This document shows positions 16,878-25,010 of a DNA stretch of 64,000 nt, one piece after another. This stretch comes from Dehalococcoidia bacterium (GTDB taxonomy: Bacteria; Chloroflexota; Dehalococcoidia; GIF9; UBA5629), in NCBI GenBank assembly GCA_050011565.1, contig JBEKIW010000001.1, positions 512,001 through 576,000 of the forward strand. The letters are read 5' to 3'. Position 1 is the stretch's first letter, and each line of letters starts with the position of its first letter. The translations under genes were made by a program, and so were the position numbers. Below the pieces are notes generated by a model that saw only the letters and a list, made by a program, of their open reading frames with translations, was not told the DNA's origin and searched no databases.

Positions 16878-17171
16878 ATTGGCTGTTGAAAAACCGAGTA
16901 GTGGCCTGTCGGCAAGCAAGCAGCCATGGTAGTGGTTATCCCAGGATGGGACAAATCGGTATGATTGGTAGCCATAATTTAGAAAGAAACAGAGAATATA
17001 GCTAAGTGCCTGACAGGTTTCCTGTTGAAGGATAATACCCTTTCAATAGGCTAGCGTTGCTGATATGTGAGAGAGATGCGGTCATGACAAGCGGGTCAGG
17101 TGTGAGCTGGCCCGTGTTTCGAAATTACGCGTTTCTTACAGAAATAAAGAGAAAAGGAGGTCGAAAGGAAA

Positions 17172-18707
17172 ATGGAGTGTTATCCATGGTGGAACGAAAC
17201 TCAGAAGAAGCTTGCTGAAGAGGTAAAGGCGGTTACAGACGAAGTACTGATTCCGTTGGGTGAGAGATGTGCCTGGAAAAAGGAGTTTCCTTGGGAAGCG
17301 ATAAAGGAGATGGCTAGAAGGGGGTGGTTTGGGGCGCAAATCCCGGCCGAGTACGGGGGTCGGGCAGAGGAATGGGGAGTCACCGGTGCCTGCATCATAC
17401 TGGAGGAGACAGGACGGGCTGGTGAAATATCTTTACCCTTAGCATGTACCATGCAAGGTGGTATTCACCAGATTATTCACGATGGAACCGATGAGCAGAA
17501 GAAGCGATGGCTCCCAAGGATTGCTAAGGGAGAATTACTCGGTGCTATAACTATGACCGAGCCGTATGCTGGTTCAGACATAGCAGGTATAGAGACCACT
17601 GCTGCCAAGGATGGCGATTATTACATCGTCAATGGAAAGAAGAGATTCCAGACCTCGGCTGCAGCAGCAGATATATACATGACCTACGTAAAGACCAGCG
17701 ATAAAGCCGAGGATATAGCCAAATATTGTCACCTTACTGGTTTGATCATTGAGAAGGGGACACCTGGGTTCACGATCGAAAAGGTCAACGATCTCATGGG
17801 GATGGATGGAATATATAATTGCTACCTTAACTTCGACAATTCAGCGGTACCGGTAAAGAACAGAATAGGTGCAGAGGGTTCCGGCTGGCAAGTGATGACA
17901 AGTGGTCTGAACGTAGAGAGAACTCTCGACGCGGCTGCACCACTGGGTTCGATGCGAGAGGCGATTCGATACGCCGTGCAGCACTTACAACGGAGAGTCC
18001 AATTTGGTCAGCGGACGGGAGACATGGCAACAAATCAGTTTAAGGTTGCCGATATGATCTGGAAGCTGCAACTGTCAAGACTACTGACATATTATACGGC
18101 GTACTGCCTTGACCTTGGCAGAGAAGTACCATTGGAAGCAGCAATGGCAAAGATGTACATTACCGATAGCACCTTGCAAACTGCAATTGAAGCTATCCAG
18201 TGTATGGGAGGTAATGGAGTTACCCGGTACTATCCTGTCGAGAGGATTATGAGAGATGTAAAGCTAATGCAAATTGCTGCTGGCACCAACGAGGTGGCGA
18301 GACTTCTCATTTACAGGCAGGGGTTGAGGAGCCTGATGCCAGATTTGAAGGTTCCAGCCAGAGTTATAGACGATGCGCTTAAGGTGCCAATGCCTTTAGG
18401 AAAGGCACCGCCACCAAGGTTATGCTCAAGTGAAGATGATGTCATAAAAGTACTTGGAGAGGAATACCGGATTAATCCAGGGCTGCACATGACAATAGAG
18501 GACATCAAAGGGCTGTTGGCTGTGAACGATGAAGACCTTAAAAAACATCTAGTCAGTCTGGAAAAGAAGGGGTTGGTCAGCCTATATCGGGATAGACGTG
18601 GCACAATCGCCTTAGCTAGGGCAACCTATAAAGGATTAGCTCAGGCAAATCCCCCAGAGTATTACAAATACATCCCAGAATGGGTTGCTAAGAAGGACAT
18701 ATTCTAA
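17172..18707 (+). CDS. Acyl-CoA dehydrogenase with C-terminal winged-helix-like extension
   Basis: TMTEPYAGSD, NGKKRF, RVQFGQ, AIQCMGGNG, IAAGTNEV, then about 120 extra residues. Confidence 0.88.
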   Translation: MECYPWWNETQKKLAEEVKAVTDEVLIPLGERCAWKKEFPWEAIKEMARRGWFGAQIPAEYGGRAEEWGVTGACIILEETGRAGEISLPLACTMQGGIHQIIHDGTDEQKKRWLPRIAKGELLGAITMTEPYAGSDIAGIETTAAKDGDYYIVNGKKRFQTSAAAADIYMTYVKTSDKAEDIAKYCHLTGLIIEKGTPGFTIEKVNDLMGMDGIYNCYLNFDNSAVPVKNRIGAEGSGWQVMTSGLNVERTLDAAAPLGSMREAIRYAVQHLQRRVQFGQRTGDMATNQFKVADMIWKLQLSRLLTYYTAYCLDLGREVPLEAAMAKMYITDSTLQTAIEAIQCMGGNGVTRYYPVERIMRDVKLMQIAAGTNEVARLLIYRQGLRSLMPDLKVPARVIDDALKVPMPLGKAPPPRLCSSEDDVIKVLGEEYRINPGLHMTIEDIKGLLAVNDEDLKKHLVSLEKKGLVSLYRDRRGTIALARATYKGLAQANPPEYYKYIPEWVAKKDIF

Positions 18708-18984
18708 GTTAATCTCAGTAAAGTATGCCTGGTCAGGTTGAAAATACAGCCTTTTCCTGTAAGTGATATATCCTAAGGAAGTTCGGGAACTCTCCATGCT
18801 GCTCAATAATCAATTGATACAGAACGGGAGCGAGCACTGGTTCCGATCGACCACCTAGTGACCTATCGGCAGGCACTGGAGGGAAAACTGGCCGTAATGT
18901 TCATTAAGAGTTGAATTGAGTATTATTCACGAGGCGCGACTGCAATTCTAAATCGTACCAATTCTGTTTCAAGGAGATATTAAC

Positions 18985-20166
18985 ATGAAAGGTGCACTAG
19001 CAGGTGTTACGGTTCTAGATCTCACTCAAGTTCTGAATGGACCTTTTGCGACAACAATGCTTGCCGATCTGGGAGCCGAGGTCATCAAAGTTGAACCTCC
19101 TGAAGGAGAAGTGGCAAGAGCCGCCCCTCCCAAGATTGGAAATGAGTCCTACCCATTTATGCAACTTAATCGCAACAAGAAAAGTGTCACCCTGAACCTC
19201 AGAAGCAAGCAAGGGAAGGAAATCTTCAACAGACTGGCAAGAAAAGCGGATGTGATAGTTAACAACTTCTCACCGGGAACAATGGACAAGATGGGGCTCA
19301 GCTATCAAGAGTTGAAAAGAATAAATCCTCAAATTATCTATGCGTCCAGTTCTGGATTCGGGCAGAATGGGCCTTACTCTTCGCGAAGAGCCTACGATCC
19401 AGTGATCCAAGCTGCTTCAGGTATAATGAGCCTTACCGGCTATCCAGATGATCAGCCCACTAAGGTTGGGCCCAGCATTACTGATTTCATGGGTGGCATG
19501 ATGACCGCTTTGGCTATTGTATCTGCGCTGTATTATCGAAAGGAAACTGGGAAAGGTCAGGAAATAGATATCTCAATGCATGATATTGCATGCAGCATAA
19601 CCCTAGAGTTTTGGGCAGATTATCTTGTAGGCGTCAAGGTCCCACGGCGAGTAGGAAATGAGGATCCTAACGTGGCACCGGCCAACGGCTATGCTGCTCG
19701 GGATGGATACGTGATGATTTTTGCAGGTTTCGATCATGAGTGGGCCAGGCTAGCGAAAACTATGGGAAAAGAAGAGCTAGTCGACGACCCGAGATTCTCG
19801 AGTGCAGAAGCTAGAGTGCGACACCGAAAAGAAGTAGATGCCATAGTGGCGGGATGGGTAGCAAGCAAATCTGTCGAAGAACTACTGAGTGAGCTTGATA
19901 ATGCAAAGGTGGTCTCTGGGCCAGTTCTTAACCTTGAGCAGGTGCTTGACGACCCTCATGTCCGGTATCGTGGAATTATGTCTGAAATTGACCACCCTGC
20001 CGCGGGTAAAGTGAAGGTACTTGGCCCATTGATGAAGTTTTCGCGGTCGCCAGCAGAAATAAGGTCTCCAGCTCCTCTTTTGGGGCAGCACAATGCAGAG
20101 ATTCTTAACGAGCTAGGCTATAGTACTCAGGAGATCGTGGAGCTTCGAAAAAGCGAAGTAATCTAA
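18985..20166 (+). CDS. Family III CoA-transferase (CaiB/BaiF)
   Basis: VLDLTQVLNGPFAT.LADLGAEVIKVE, NRNKKS, RAYDPVIQA catalytic Asp. Confidence 0.93.
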   Translation: MKGALAGVTVLDLTQVLNGPFATTMLADLGAEVIKVEPPEGEVARAAPPKIGNESYPFMQLNRNKKSVTLNLRSKQGKEIFNRLARKADVIVNNFSPGTMDKMGLSYQELKRINPQIIYASSSGFGQNGPYSSRRAYDPVIQAASGIMSLTGYPDDQPTKVGPSITDFMGGMMTALAIVSALYYRKETGKGQEIDISMHDIACSITLEFWADYLVGVKVPRRVGNEDPNVAPANGYAARDGYVMIFAGFDHEWARLAKTMGKEELVDDPRFSSAEARVRHRKEVDAIVAGWVASKSVEELLSELDNAKVVSGPVLNLEQVLDDPHVRYRGIMSEIDHPAAGKVKVLGPLMKFSRSPAEIRSPAPLLGQHNAEILNELGYSTQEIVELRKSEVI

Positions 20167-20690
20167 AAATCTGCCATTCGATTGTCCGAAGGGTATTGCT
20201 TGTTTGTGAGGATTTATTTGGGTTCGGTAGGGAAGGAAATCTCGAAATGCAACTCGACTTCAATGATACTCTTACCATCGGCGAAGAAGTCAATAATGTC
20301 CCCCCTAATTCCTCGTGAGCATTTTCCCCAAACGGTACTCGACGTTTCCACGAAGAATTGAAATCGAACTACGGCTATAACCACTCGAGTTAAGAAAAGA
20401 GCTTGTAACGAGAGAATAAAGTATTGTGACTTCGCCTAGGTTACGGAGTTGCTCACTAGTTTTGGCTATGGCCATTGTTGATTTTTCTGTAACAATATGC
20501 CGTGTGGCCAACATTCGCCTGATTTGTTACCTATGTTGCACGTTCAGCTAAAATGGGGAACTTGAAACAACCACCCAGCCTATTCGTATCAACAGCCGGC
20601 CAGTTTCATTAGAACTCATCGACTTGACAGGTGTTCGACCGAGGCCCAGGCATAGCTCAGTTTTAAGCTCCAGAATAAATTGGTTTCTAT

Positions 20691-21581
20691 TTAGTCCTCC
20701 GGTTCGGCCAAATCTACCCAGCGGTCACCCAACATTAAATCCTGTTTACTTCTATGAGGATGAGCTAACCCCTCTGAACTCTTATACTCCCGGAAGTGAT
20801 GCTCGCGCTTGTCACTTAACTCAATACCGACTGTTTCCCCCGTCGGCACACGTCGGGTAAGTTGCTTTACTTCGGCAACTTTATTCTCAAGCTCAGATAA
20901 CATATGTTCGAGCGAAACTAATTTGGTATTTACCTGATTAATTGAAGTCCGATCACTTCGGACTGACTCCCGGATATGGTTCACAGTTGTCGATAGCTCA
21001 TATAACTCGTTAGCTGTAGCCGTTGCTTTTCCTTCTATTTTCGAGAGATGATCCTTACATGATTCGCCGTTCTCGTGTATACCAGCAGCTAGCATTTTAT
21101 ATGTATTCGATGTCTCATTCTGAAGCGACTTAAATTTTCCAGTAAGCTCGGCTACCATAGTACCCAGCGCCTCTCGAGAAACGTATCCGGATTCCAGTTG
21201 CTCAGTCAGTTTACCGAGCTGCTCACTAAACTGGCTCAGCTGCTGGGTAAGCTCAGCGACCTGCTCAGCTTGCTCAGCTGCTCGCTCACTTACGCTTGCC
21301 AGTCGCCGGGTAAGTGGTACTTCGGTATAACCAGACTGGACATCCAGATCAGAGTCCCTCAGTCCAATAGCTTGCTCTAGCCTTGCTAACCTTTGCTCCA
21401 GGCCACCGAGCCCATGCTGAGCAGGTGGTGGGAACCCAAGGCTGAAGCCTGGGGATTGCTCAGCAAGCTGAGCTGCTGGTTCCTTGGAGCGGTCACCGTT
21501 ATTGGAATGAACAAACTGATTGTGTCCAGCCAAACCCTGCGTATTCTTAAATTCTTTCTTACAGATCGTACAGGTAACCAT
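20691..21581 (-). CDS. C2H2 zinc-finger plus long coiled-coil hypothetical protein
   Basis: N-terminal CTICKKEFKNTQGLAGHNQFVH (C-x2-C-x3-F-x5-L-x2-H-x4-H); heptad-rich L/E/Q middle; AGGAGG RBS. Confidence 0.8.
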   Translation of the reverse strand: MVTCTICKKEFKNTQGLAGHNQFVHSNNGDRSKEPAAQLAEQSPGFSLGFPPPAQHGLGGLEQRLARLEQAIGLRDSDLDVQSGYTEVPLTRRLASVSERAAEQAEQVAELTQQLSQFSEQLGKLTEQLESGYVSREALGTMVAELTGKFKSLQNETSNTYKMLAAGIHENGESCKDHLSKIEGKATATANELYELSTTVNHIRESVRSDRTSINQVNTKLVSLEHMLSELENKVAEVKQLTRRVPTGETVGIELSDKREHHFREYKSSEGLAHPHRSKQDLMLGDRWVDLAEPED

Positions 21582-21683
21582 GATTAACCTCCTTTTCAGA
21601 TGATCATTTTGGCAACAAAGACTAATAGATAGAACAATAGATTAACTGGATATCAAGGTAAGTTCGAAAAAGGTAACAGTATT

Positions 21684-21714
21684 CGGTTTTGCAGTAAGAC
21701 CGCTATAGCCACCA
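21684..21714 (-). other. Putative att-like half-site, inverted relative to the tRNA junction
   Basis: TGGTGG core on the minus strand (CCACCA at 21709-21714); CGGTTTTGC at 21684-21692 matches 8/9 to CGGTTCTGC at 24912-24920 in the recombinase-end arm. Confidence 0.45.
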
Positions 21715-21844
21715 ACCACAGTTAAGTCGAGGATCAAGTCCAAGTCCAAATCAAAGCCCAAATTGAAGTCAAAACAAAAGTCGAAACCAAAGTAAAATTT
21801 GCACATGTTGAGAAAGTCAGCAAAATGGGCACCTGGTTGGTGGC
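21708..21844. repeat. 11-bp perfect inverted repeat GCCACCAACCA/TGGTTGGTGGC enclosing a degenerate hexamer repeat
   Basis: Arms at 21708-21718 and 21834-21844; about 12 degenerate hexamers at 21724-21795 read KSRIKSKSKSKPKLKSKQKSKPK* on the plus strand. Confidence 0.75.
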
Positions 21845-22056
21845 GAGGCAACACTTGCCGTTATATGTATTTTCCCATGTGTCTCGCATTTGATTGCATA
21901 GCCGATTCGGCCCGTGGTGATACCGCCATTTACACTAGTATTCTCCTTAGTATTCTTTACGGGTCTTGTCTCTGCATCTTTACGGCCGCAATTCGGACAT
22001 TTCGACAAATCCGGCGGGATAGTACAACCGCACTCAGGACATTTCATGTTTGACAT
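21817..22056 (-). CDS. Small zinc-ribbon protein (79 aa)
   Basis: CPECG...CPNCG plus CETH...CPFC; AGGAGGT RBS. Confidence 0.75.
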   Translation of the reverse strand: MSNMKCPECGCTIPPDLSKCPNCGRKDAETRPVKNTKENTSVNGGITTGRIGYAIKCETHGKIHITASVASPPTRCPFC

Positions 22057-22221
22057 TTTGACCTCCTTCTAACCTTTGCGAAATAGAAATCAGAGGAACT
22101 GAGTGGTCTTTCTTGACAGATCTGTTTTGTCTCCATGTTCTTCCATGAGCCATATTTATCCCGTCTATCGGAGGACTTCCTGTGCTGCACATAACATGTC
22201 AAAGAGTCCACGTTATCCATG

Positions 22222-22362
22222 TCAGGGACGTTCAGGTCCTCGCTCTTGATCACAAGCATGTTTCGCCAGCAGTCGCTTGGCGATCAGTTTTGCCAAAATC
22301 CTCAAGCCTTGTAACTTTGGCTGTTCACTAACATCGCCGATCTCATACTCGGAGTTTGACAT
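22222..22362 (-). CDS. 46-aa small protein, first gene of the leftward transcript
   Basis: Manual translation MSNSEYEIGDVSEQPKLQGLRILAKLIAKRLLAKHACDQERGPERP; basic amphipathic helix; directly downstream of a consensus promoter. Confidence 0.55.
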   Translation of the reverse strand: MSNSEYEIGDVSEQPKLQGLRILAKLIAKRLLAKHACDQERGPERP

Positions 22363-22385
22363 GGCCGAAATCACCCGATATCGCC

Positions 22386-22478
22386 AAAGTAGCATCTTGT
22401 CAGACAGTTGTCAAGTGATATCATGCCTAAATAATACATCCCACAGCACTTGACAACATATGGTAACTATGCTATTAT
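22386..22478. promoter_or_regulatory. Back-to-back symmetric sigma70 promoters
   Basis: Plus strand: TTGACA 22450-22455, 17 nt, TGc-TATTAT 22473-22478. Minus strand: TTGACA 22414-22409, 17 nt, TGc-TACTTT 22391-22386. The 11-bp IR GTTGTCAAGTG/CACTTGACAAC covers both -35 boxes. Confidence 0.75.
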
Positions 22479-22518
22479 TTCAGCAGCAAATACCATTTTG
22501 AACCTGAGGAGGATGAAC

Positions 22519-23343
22519 ATGGTCAAACGCACCAAAAAACCACCGGTCCCACCCGAGAAGGCCAGGGAGTGGCTGCGGCGCCTTGAAGATAGAGGGGAAT
22601 CTGTGCCGCAGATTGCCAAAACGGATTACTACGATGTCAGGACGGTGCGGAAGCAGGTGGAAAAAGCTAGAGAGGAACGGGACCGACGGCAGTCAAGGCA
22701 GATGGTGCTGCGGGAGGCGCTGGAAATGCACTATGCTGATCTTTGCTCCTTGGCCGAGAAGATAAGGGCCGATCTGATAAGAAATACCCCTTCAAGTCTG
22801 TCGCTGTCACTGAGAGATGATCCGCTATATGAGGCTCTCAAGAAGCATGTGCCCAAACTGCGCGTCTGGAAAAACATTGAGCGGTTGGGGACCATGGAAG
22901 TTGAGTTTCGCGAGGTCGCAACGAACTTAAGACAGCGTATTGCCGCTGAAGCGGGAGAGAGTCTATCGCTGCCAGTTGGCGTAGAACCAGGTAAATCGGG
23001 ACTTGATGAGGATTTCGTCAAGGCAATGCTATCCCACCTAGTGAATAAGGCAAGTCGCGGGCAGGGCCTTGATGACCAGGCTTACAAGACCGTCCCCACA
23101 GATTCGGGAATACGGCTGGAGCGCGGCGTTTTTCTCATAGCGCTGGCACCAAAGGTACGGGTCAAAAAGATACAAACTACGTTTGACAGGATGATGGTCG
23201 AGGCACTGGCATGGGAGGAATATCTCCACATGTCCGGGATTGTGTCCGAGTTCTACCAGATCCTGTCCAAGGTGAAAGATGAGCTCACTAAAATAATTCT
23301 GACGCGGGTGGTACCAGGGAGGTGTGATTACTGTCCGATTTAA
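22519..23343 (+). CDS. HTH-containing protein with C-terminal CxxC, upstream of recombinase (putative regulator/accessory)
   Basis: GESVPQIAKTDYYDVRTVRKQV HTH-like segment; ends VVPGRCDYCPI; GAGGAGG RBS before ATG 22519. Confidence 0.75.
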   Translation: MVKRTKKPPVPPEKAREWLRRLEDRGESVPQIAKTDYYDVRTVRKQVEKAREERDRRQSRQMVLREALEMHYADLCSLAEKIRADLIRNTPSSLSLSLRDDPLYEALKKHVPKLRVWKNIERLGTMEVEFREVATNLRQRIAAEAGESLSLPVGVEPGKSGLDEDFVKAMLSHLVNKASRGQGLDDQAYKTVPTDSGIRLERGVFLIALAPKVRVKKIQTTFDRMMVEALAWEEYLHMSGIVSEFYQILSKVKDELTKIILTRVVPGRCDYCPI

Positions 23344-23401
23344 CAGGGAATGCGGACTACGTGGTATCGTGAGACAATAATCCATTGCTCGGAGGCATGT
23401 C

Positions 23402-24991
23402 ATGAAAGCAGCAATCTACGCTCGAGTGTCATCGGAGAAGCAGGATATCGAACTCTCAATATCAGCGCAGCTGAAAGCGTTACGCGAATACGCGGCGCGA
23501 AACGGTTACGTTGTGGTAAGAGAATTTGTAGACGAGGCGGAGAGCGGCAAGACTTCATCCCGTCCTCAATTTATGGAAATGATTGCCACTGCCAAACGTT
23601 CTTCAAAACCTTTCGATGTCATACTCGTCTGGAAGTATTCCCGCTTTGCTCGTAACCGACAGGATTCTATTGTGTTTAAGACGATGTTGCGAAAGATGGG
23701 AGTCCAGGTGATATCGATCAACGAGCCGGTTGAAGATACGCCAACCGGCAAGCTTACTGAAGCAATCATAGAGAGCTTGGACGAATTCTACTCGGCGAAC
23801 CTGGGCGAAGAGGTTACTCGTGGTATGAGGGAAAGCGCCTCACGAGGGTTCTACATCGCCAGCTACACCCCGTATGGATATAGGCGAATAAGAGTAAGGG
23901 ATGGTGGTAAGGAGAGACCAAAGCTGGAACCTGAACCGCATGAGGCTGAAGTTGTAGTTAGAATGTTCAGGGAAGCCCAAGACGGAAAAGGTCTAAAAGA
24001 AATCCTCAAAGGTCTGAACACAGAAGGTATCAAAGCACCCAGAGGTAAAGGATGGATAAAAACCACTCTTTATCACATACTCTGCAACGAGGCTTATACT
24101 GGCTGCCTGGTCTGGGGCAGAAATAACATCAGGAAATTACCTACCATCCGTGTGGAAAGCGCCTGGCCAGCGATAATCGATAAAGATGCTTTCTTACAGG
24201 TGCAAAGCATACTTAAAAGTCGAGCACCGGCATATCTTCACCCCAAACGAACCGCCAGCAGTTTTCTACTTAGTGGAATCGCTAAATGTGGCTATTGCGG
24301 TAAAGCTCTCGTCGGCAACAACGCCAAGAGTGGAAGATTCAGCTATTACGTCTGCGGAAGCTTGCTCAAGAAGGGATCAGGCGCTTGTAACACCAGATAT
24401 ATCAACAGCAAGGATTTTGAGACACTAGTGATTGACAAAATAAGGGAACATATCTTGACTGAAGACAATTTGCGAGAACTCGTACGTCTGGTAAATGAAG
24501 AGATGGATTCTCTATCTACAGAATATAGGGCAAATCTTGACACCGTTAACTGCGAGATTATGGATGTCGATAAACGTCTGGACAGATTGTACGATGCGAT
24601 CGAGACCGGAAGATTAGAAGACACAGACATAGCACCACGTATAAAACAACTCAGGGAACGCCGAGATAACCTACAAAATAGAAGGTGGGAGCTTGAGTGG
24701 CAGTTAAAGGACCGGAAAGTCGAGCTTGCCGATCTACAAACCGTAAAGCGCTACGTCGATGATCTTAGAAGCCTACTAAGCGACGGTTCTATCATTGAAA
24801 GAAAGTCGTTTATCAAGAGCTTTGTCAAAGAGGTTAAAGTCACAGGGAACCAGGCATGCCTCACCTATACAATTCCAATTTCAAAGGGAGGCACGACGCA
24901 GGAACAGATCGCGGTTCTGCCTACTGTACAACATGGTGGGCCATTGTGGACTCGAACCACAGACCCCGGTCTTATCAGGACCGTGCTCTAA
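23402..24991 (+). CDS. Large serine recombinase (resolvase, recombinase and zinc-ribbon domains)
   Basis: AAIYARVSS catalytic Ser, DEAESGK..RPQF, SRFARN, PYGY, LLSGIAKCGYCG...YYVC...C, coiled coil. Confidence 0.95.
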   Translation: MKAAIYARVSSEKQDIELSISAQLKALREYAARNGYVVVREFVDEAESGKTSSRPQFMEMIATAKRSSKPFDVILVWKYSRFARNRQDSIVFKTMLRKMGVQVISINEPVEDTPTGKLTEAIIESLDEFYSANLGEEVTRGMRESASRGFYIASYTPYGYRRIRVRDGGKERPKLEPEPHEAEVVVRMFREAQDGKGLKEILKGLNTEGIKAPRGKGWIKTTLYHILCNEAYTGCLVWGRNNIRKLPTIRVESAWPAIIDKDAFLQVQSILKSRAPAYLHPKRTASSFLLSGIAKCGYCGKALVGNNAKSGRFSYYVCGSLLKKGSGACNTRYINSKDFETLVIDKIREHILTEDNLRELVRLVNEEMDSLSTEYRANLDTVNCEIMDVDKRLDRLYDAIETGRLEDTDIAPRIKQLRERRDNLQNRRWELEWQLKDRKVELADLQTVKRYVDDLRSLLSDGSIIERKSFIKSFVKEVKVTGNQACLTYTIPISKGGTTQEQIAVLPTVQHGGPLWTRTTDPGLIRTVL

Positions 24992-25010
24992 CCAACTGAG
25001 CTAATGGCCC
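24934..25010 (-). tRNA. tRNA-Ile (GAT)
   Basis: GGGCCATTAGCTCAGTTGGTTAGAGCACGGTCCTGATAAGACCGGGGTCTGTGGTTCGAGTCCACAATGGCCCACCA; cloverleaf with GAT anticodon and encoded CCA. Confidence 0.97.

Follow-up and report, generated by a model that had tools for sequence, protein, structure and literature searches.

At the right end of a genomic island in a bacterium of the class Dehalococcoidia, a predicted attachment half-site of an integrative element is placed backward relative to the neighbouring recombinase gene and encodes the tail of a recombinase. The region is located in a stretch of 64,000 nucleotides of genome G000, referred to as the window, and terminates at a gene for tRNA-Ile, into which the reading frame of a large serine recombinase (LSR) extends. 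Since a junction in direct orientation exists, this region is in kind an ordinary island end with one real oddity, the backward element end coding for a recombinase tail, which is most likely a fossil left by either a nested insertion or one inversion event. Of the explanations weighed below, we consider it reasonably probable that this end belongs to a sister element that is placed within the island in reverse orientation and no longer possesses its recombinase end. Positions without prefix refer to the window and those with the prefix C1 to the genome, where C1:497820 corresponds to window position -14180 and C1:536933 to 24933. The relatives used for comparison comprise 401 genomes of the class and, for synteny, 13 genomes of the genus; genomes are labelled with G and loci with L, the latter stemming in part from a metagenome scan with the recombinase (79 loci). 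Evidence from sequencing runs refers to assembled contigs of four runs (X1, X3, X4 and X5) from four studies, which drop rare variants, and X1 may be the source sample of the window.

The strings that had drawn attention to the region in a preliminary description are all present. On the plus strand, the nonamer CGGTTCTGC at 24912-24920 is followed after a gap of 13 nucleotides by TGGTGG at 24934-24939, which equals the CCA end of tRNA-Ile(GAT) on the minus strand. At a distance of 3.2 kb, the same strand reads CGGTTTTGC at 21684-21692, a copy of the nonamer at eight of nine positions, followed after 16 nucleotides by CCACCA at 21709-21714, and the core of this second half-site is, as had been proposed, inverted with respect to the one at the tRNA junction. 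When both stretches are joined by their coordinates, the frame of the recombinase continues into an open tail with a stop codon at 21642-21644, 60 nucleotides ahead of the start at 21581 of a co-oriented gene for a C2H2 zinc-finger protein. The preliminary description had further suggested a comparison of this tail with the C-termini of related recombinases, and a resemblance is borne out by searches with the tail of the recombinase at locus L082. Used as tblastn query, this peptide finds its best match in the window at 21713-21651 on the minus strand (52% identity over 21 residues, E 0.002), and the same stretch is also its best match in the 2-Mb genome (E 0.069). The tail of L124 matches the same site, and all of these tails contain a short common motif that terminates in TFFEL or FFEI. 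The arm motif ends 23 nucleotides from the core, a spacing that is found in four of seven attachment sites resembling that of a free element (attP) in related loci, and in the position of the P' arm of such a site its class occurs once in the 2-Mb genome and, among the loci, in L082 and L124. The order of genes beyond the tail recurs as well. In L082, a gene resembling the C2H2 gene of the window starts 33 nucleotides after the tail stop, and G353 contains a full homologue, preceded by the same P' arm and tail, which is 61% identical by HMMER and 57% by tblastn. Judged from these comparisons of sequence, the P' arm, the tail and the C2H2 gene together are a conserved left-end cassette of the elements of this family. 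The match of the tail to that of L082, the spacing of the arm in the family and the order of the C2H2 gene in L082 and G353 are likewise the reasons why the site at 21684-21714 is held to be a genuine attachment half-site that lies opposite to the strand of the recombinase. In G353 (contig C16, positions 5510-10037 of L160), the cassette is located behind a gene for tRNA-Arg and two tyrosine-integrase genes, its core does not contain the TGGT of the CCA end, and there is no recombinase of the family on that contig.

A chance resemblance of the nonamer, the hexamer and the open frame would be compatible with the statistics of the DNA. In a local alignment of the junction with 20167-22449, the best score was reached by 198 of 200 shuffles and the score of the half-site by all 200. 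With up to one mismatch, the nonamer occurs 14 times in the window; it was found beside TGGTGG or CCACCA in 1.4% of 500 resamples of 20167-24880 (4.7 kb), a value that increases to 23% if any nonamer of the arm is permitted, and in a position-weight scan the half-site at 21684-21714 ranks fifth among 334 anchored candidates. The similarity of the arms in DNA alone is thus not above chance. We nevertheless regard a coincidence as extremely improbable, in view of a tail that is the top genome-wide match to an independent recombinase tail and of a C2H2 gene that occupies the corresponding position in two further contexts and is 80% identical in DNA to its counterpart in G353 over 548 nucleotides. 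A position-weight scan built from P arms was dropped, as it found only sites inside open reading frames (ORFs) in L062, L069 and L074, and comparison of recombinase C-termini with the region returned only noise, including a recurring weak match antisense to the start of the C2H2 gene.

The preliminary description had assumed that a junction in direct orientation is missing, and had pointed to the DNA left of the window as the place where a direct half-site might be found. The former view does not hold, as the latter search was successful. Tail peptides of attP-like loci, when compared with the whole genome, match C1:497822 on the plus strand (82% identity over 17 residues, E 2e-5), where the DNA consists of a flank, TGGTGG and an arm that mirrors the P arm of the window at 15 of 17 positions. 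This left attachment site (attL) is located in direct orientation outside the window, 14.2 kb to its left, at G000:C1:497820. Direct repeats of 10 bp at C1:497820 and C1:536933 are separated by 39,113 bp. Over C1:491282-497703, the left flank has 72-90% identity with the DNA directly adjoining tRNA-Ile in G012, G004, G011 and G013, with a partial match in G001, while on the right side homology with seven relatives begins exactly at 24934, and the tRNA-Ile(GAT) gene itself is kept in 40 of 41 genomes searched. Between these borders, positions 276-24933 of the window are not syntenic in the relatives. A left end of the island inside the window, which was sought by synteny, was rejected, as no DNA left of 24934 has a counterpart in the 13 genomes of the genus and the end is located outside. 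The relatives hold an empty target site at tRNA-Ile and, in light of this empty site and the direct repeats, positions 1-24942 of the window constitute the right part of an island of 39.1 kb. With attL and the right attachment site (attR) in direct orientation and their arms mirrored around a shared core, the island is shown to be an integrated element. A joined attP, as expected for an excised circle, is not listed among the assembled contigs. The exchange would occur at GG 24938-24939, the symmetry centre as judged by eye in attP-like palindromes such as that of L130, and this placement within TGGTGG would leave the tRNA intact.

By the criterion of its domains, the product of 23402-24991 is an LSR, which contains PF00239 Resolvase (E 5.8e-34), PF07508 Recombinase (E 2.4e-23) and PF13408 Zn_ribbon_recom (E 2.1e-13), all exceeding the respective cut-offs. 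The final 18 codons of its ORF are located in the tRNA gene, and the frame ends 57 nucleotides inside it. Within 20691-24991 there is no other ORF with a Resolvase domain, and the gene directly upstream of the recombinase does not encode one either. For this upstream gene, which codes for a protein of 274 residues, we found no match in Pfam, NCBIfam or PHROG; we infer that it is a candidate for a directionality factor or a regulator. The features of the region are compiled in Table 1.

Table 1. Features at the right end of the island, in window coordinates.
Feature	Position	Strand	Basis or remark
Genomic island of 39.1 kb, part in the window	1-24942 (whole: C1:497820 to C1:536942)		direct repeats, empty site
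Non-coding spacer between C2H2 gene and metabolic cargo	20182-20690		no ORF of at least 90 residues
C2H2 zinc-finger and coiled-coil protein, 296 residues	20691-21581	-	weak C2H2 Pfam matches
ORF of 70 residues through hexamer repeats (about 21725-21800), core and recombinase-type tail	21642-21854	-	
Codons of alternative recombinase tail	21645-21713	-	tblastn to tail of L082; stop at 21642-21644
Inverted half-site of P' type, core TGGTGG followed by arm motif ending 23 nucleotides from core	21684-21714	-	
Three small ORFs, including a zinc-ribbon protein of 79 residues (21817-22056)	21817-22395	-	
Promoter-like site upstream of accessory gene	22450-22478	+	11 of 12 consensus positions, extended -10 TG; consensus match only
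Conserved accessory protein of no known family, 274 residues	22519-23343	+	homologues directly upstream of recombinase in many loci
Large serine recombinase, 529 residues	23402-24991	+	Pfam domains; phrog_95 integrase, E 3e-118
P arm of attR, also coding for last conserved recombinase residues	24904-24933	+	arm conservation across junctions
Repeat of 10 bp common to tRNA end and distant attL, holding core TGGTGG	24933-24942	+	
tRNA-Ile(GAT), B' half of attachment site	24934-25010	-	ARAGORN

The recombinase is a member of a family with homologues (E at most 1e-60) in 111 of the 401 genomes of the class. Of 112 recombinase 3' ends, 83 adjoin a tRNA gene at its 3' end and continue antisense into it, a count that includes overlapping loci, with 68 distinct junctions. 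These tRNAs comprise 12 species, of which the commonest are Ile-GAT (21), Val-CAC (15), Val-GAC (9), Ala-GGC (8) and Ala-TGC (8). The sequence of the 30 nucleotides preceding the tRNA end is conserved and keeps its register, and in 12 of the 13 junctions displayed the P arm is conserved with a constant spacing to the tRNA. The family specialises in the 3' ends of tRNAs, with a reading frame that always extends past the crossover site into the tRNA. At some loci without a downstream tRNA (L130, L153/L145, L124, L086, L082 and L102), we find attP-like palindromes, whose centre, as judged by eye, is the GG forming bases 5-6 of TGGTGG. The arms of the element end in GAAC or AAAC 23 or 24 nucleotides from this centre, and the T-loop of the tRNA gives GAAC at 15-18 nucleotides. 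The recombinase would accordingly read a GTTC/GAAC motif 21-24 nucleotides from the core on the arms of the element, and on the host side the conserved T-loop would supply GAAC at 15-18 nucleotides from the core. An offset between the half-sites of attP and those of the host site attB is known for serine integrases, and structures of A118-type integrases place the distal motif about 5 bp nearer to the core on the host side; the difference in spacing between arms and T-loop would probably correspond to this usual offset. In a search of metagenomes, the sole close copy of the element is 100% identical and probably the source contig; all other matches are at most 73% identical, so that the search provides no second context for this element.

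A direct arrangement of the half-sites is the norm of this recombinase family. Five non-self tail matches are located upstream of recombinase ends, in four elements, and all of them are direct, while the sole inverted tail match, in L125, sits on the P arm of that same locus. Neither an inverted nor a direct copy of the own distal nonamer is found beside a core in any of the 67 other junctions. Two inverted candidates from a scan with P' arms were rejected, the one in L099, on inspection by eye, for its location within a gene of the insertion sequence type and the one in L097 for a core unlike that of its own junction. In the window itself, the contig of X1 is collinear across 17000-24967, and contigs of X3 (21480-22547), X4 (21303-21721) and X5 (21618-21856) cross the inverted site in the present arrangement. 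The alternative joint 21713/24938 is not listed in the contigs, from which a minority orientation could escape.

These observations bear on the proposal, made in the preliminary description, that the recombinase resides on a module that turns itself around. Such an active module, in which the recombinase together with a directionality factor would turn 21715-24937 between the tRNA junction as site of attR type and the inverted site as site of attL type, and in which the enzyme alone would reverse the process, appears to us quite improbable. Equally doubtful are its consequences, namely that each flip would exchange a tail encoded by the tRNA for the native tail, couple or uncouple the C2H2 gene and decide on the excision of the island, with the tRNA remaining intact. 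The geometry would be suitable, with identical TGGTGG cores in opposite polarity 3.2 kb apart, and serine integrases do invert DNA between inverted attachment sites in engineered switches. In addition, the frame of the tail is open, and its 52% identity to the tail of L082, at 64% identity between the two enzymes, indicates no extra divergence; the host-side arms are not conserved among seven relatives, so that an odd flank might be tolerated; and a conserved accessory gene is found upstream of the recombinase. Against this proposal, the contigs of the four runs contain a single orientation, with one run possibly being the source, and the inverted layout is unique among the 68 junctions and among the tail matches. 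The inner arm is also without the TGTACA-like motif that the P arm and the distant attL have in common, and no directionality factor has been identified.

A backward sister element had been proposed in the preliminary description as the other option, and this is the explanation that fits best, as the cassette recurs in L082 and G353 as the conserved end of an element. The sister element would have inserted backwards into the island and later lost its own recombinase end, and the inverted site would then be a fossil and not a working switch. Several observations weigh against this assignment. The island and its surroundings yielded neither a second recombinase of the family nor a right end matching the sister element, so that a deletion must be assumed. 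The second recombinase that the preliminary description had suggested to look for was not found in the island, and the genome contains a single intact family member, in addition to a pseudogene about 340 kb away. Moreover, a P' arm of this class directly adjoins the P arm of a family recombinase in L082 and L124, so that the site could be used by the enzyme of the window. L081, in turn, carries a nearly identical recombinase beside tRNA-Val, for which reason L082 may be an excised form or a tandem junction. A quick tree places the recombinases joined to both classes of P' arm in one clade and that of the window in another, to which L129, L075, L076, L078, L079, L090, L110 and L125 belong. The DNA that flanks the inverted core opposite its arm belongs to an element and not to the host, with the block of zinc-ribbon gene and repeats recurring in L090, and the contigs cannot exclude a minority orientation.

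Some of these points would be accommodated if the cassette at 20691-21714 were the native left end of the element of this recombinase that was flipped once, a scenario that we regard as unlikely. The attL at C1:497820 would in this case belong to an older island, which a newer element has joined in tandem. In L082, the recombinase is followed in one direction by its P arm, the core, a P' arm of this class, the tail and then the C2H2 gene, an order that equals the window if either 21715-24937 or the left block is turned. In line with a single inversion, the zinc-ribbon block is oriented, relative to the recombinase, oppositely to its counterpart in L090, whose zinc-ribbon homologue (66% identical) has the same direction as the recombinase there. 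Tandem arrays of islands with serine recombinases are described at ssrA in Dehalococcoides (PMC3146451). Conversely, the arm of the distant attL mirrors the P arm of the window at 15 of 17 positions, whereas the inverted site does so only in the nonamer; no remnant of an older recombinase end is found between the two blocks, and the recombinase of L082 is part of a different clade from that of the window. We thus retain the backward sister element as our preferred explanation. As a further observation on the block next to the inverted core, repeats with a hexamer period are found by eye downstream of the zinc-ribbon gene both in the window (21725-21800) and in L090 (4140-4215). The tract is open in a frame that is rich in Asp-Phe-like repeats, and run X4 has a deletion of six nucleotides at 21735.

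The remainder of the island carries a varied cargo. Its left part, C1:497820-512000 (L154), encodes a Type ISP restriction-modification enzyme, an AAA_15/AAA_21 ATPase with a DUF4276 partner, a Hypoth_Ymh protein, a phosphotriesterase and dehydratases of the MaoC type. In the window, we find genes for a coenzyme A (CoA) ligase, a hydantoinase, ABC transport, an acyl-CoA dehydrogenase and a CoA-transferase. A contig of X5 (6.5 kb, depth 21) matches with 97.5% identity only 17081-20181, the part containing the acyl-CoA dehydrogenase and CoA-transferase genes, and diverges at both ends. The spacer that follows this part at 20182-20690 has no second copy in the genome. A presumed match in the gene order of the cargo with G353 was rejected, with the CoA-transferase and hydantoinase genes being only 26-33% identical.

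Other loci of the family display further arrangements of element ends. L102 contains three sites in direct order on one contig (9524, 12087 and 17254), of which the first combines the P arm of the recombinase with a P' arm and the second a host-type arm with an identical P' arm, while the third is an intact site at tRNA-Val with a near-identical host-type arm. Either a tandem array or an assembly that merges coexisting forms may account for this locus. Convergent pairs of family recombinases with 3' overlaps of about 46-61 nucleotides are found at G173:C1:3044477-3047565, G284:C1:37611-40702 and G314:C1:2847556-2850647, which suggests that the P arms of two elements collide there head-on. At L090, L094, L134, L149 and L048, the recombinase end adjoins only the 3' half of a tRNA gene that is broken near the anticodon loop, and in L094 a complete tRNA-Val gene follows 164 nucleotides beyond this half. 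In the genome of the window, a small decayed element of the family (L002) extends from C1:193745 to about 196870, with direct ends about 3.1 kb apart, the core TGGTAG, mirrored arms, a recombinase pseudogene with stop codons and a partial tRNA-like 3' piece that is not called by ARAGORN. The same genome contains other orphan ends of P' type with recombinase-type tails at C6:90861 on the minus strand and at C1:443513 and C4:160227 on the plus strand. The copy at C6:90861 is nearly identical over about 85 nucleotides to the attL arm of the island and the DNA behind it.

The recombinase resembles the integrases of phiC31 and Bxb1, A118-type integrases and CcrB in its three-domain architecture and in attP arms that form imperfect inverted repeats, and its best similarity in NCBIfam is to CcrB, at 153.6 bits against a cut-off of 900. 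In contrast to these systems, whose sites are usually found in protein genes or intergenic regions, the host half-site is here formed by the conserved acceptor and T arm of a tRNA, and the recombinase gene itself spans attP. In engineered rewritable switches, an integrase with its directionality factor turns a segment one way, and the integrase alone turns it the other way. The region shares with such inversion switches the placement of sites of attL and attR type in inverted orientation around a segment, and differs from them in that this segment encodes the recombinase itself, with no evidence of turning.

A further comparison is with the islands at ssrA of Dehalococcoides, which carry the serine integrase DsiB and in which the integrase ORF always overlaps the attachment site and the RNA gene (McMurdie et al. 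2011, PMC3146451). In common with the island of the window, they have a serine recombinase of about 540 residues at one edge, whose ORF crosses the attachment site into the gene for a small RNA or into a neighbouring island, a short repeat of the 3' end of the RNA gene in direct orientation at the far edge and genes of accessory metabolism, with tandem arrays occurring (PMC3146451). The two systems differ in their target, which here consists of tRNA genes (12 species, with tRNA-Ile in the window) instead of ssrA, in a repeat of 10 bp with the presumed crossover at the end of the acceptor stem instead of 20 bp with insertion in the T-loop, and in the partner gene, which codes for a 274-residue protein of no known family instead of the small serine recombinase DsiA; a module with ParB, Mom or a pseudo-tRNA is likewise not found among the ORFs that were scanned here (PMC3146451).

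Taken together, the host half-site of a widespread set of serine recombinases appears to be formed by the conserved T-loop and the CCA end of many different tRNAs, which would make the family of some interest for the mining of such enzymes and their sites and extends the pattern of the ssrA islands of Dehalococcoides to tRNA genes. A backward site shown to be capable of recombination would constitute a natural counterpart of engineered memory switches based on integrases.

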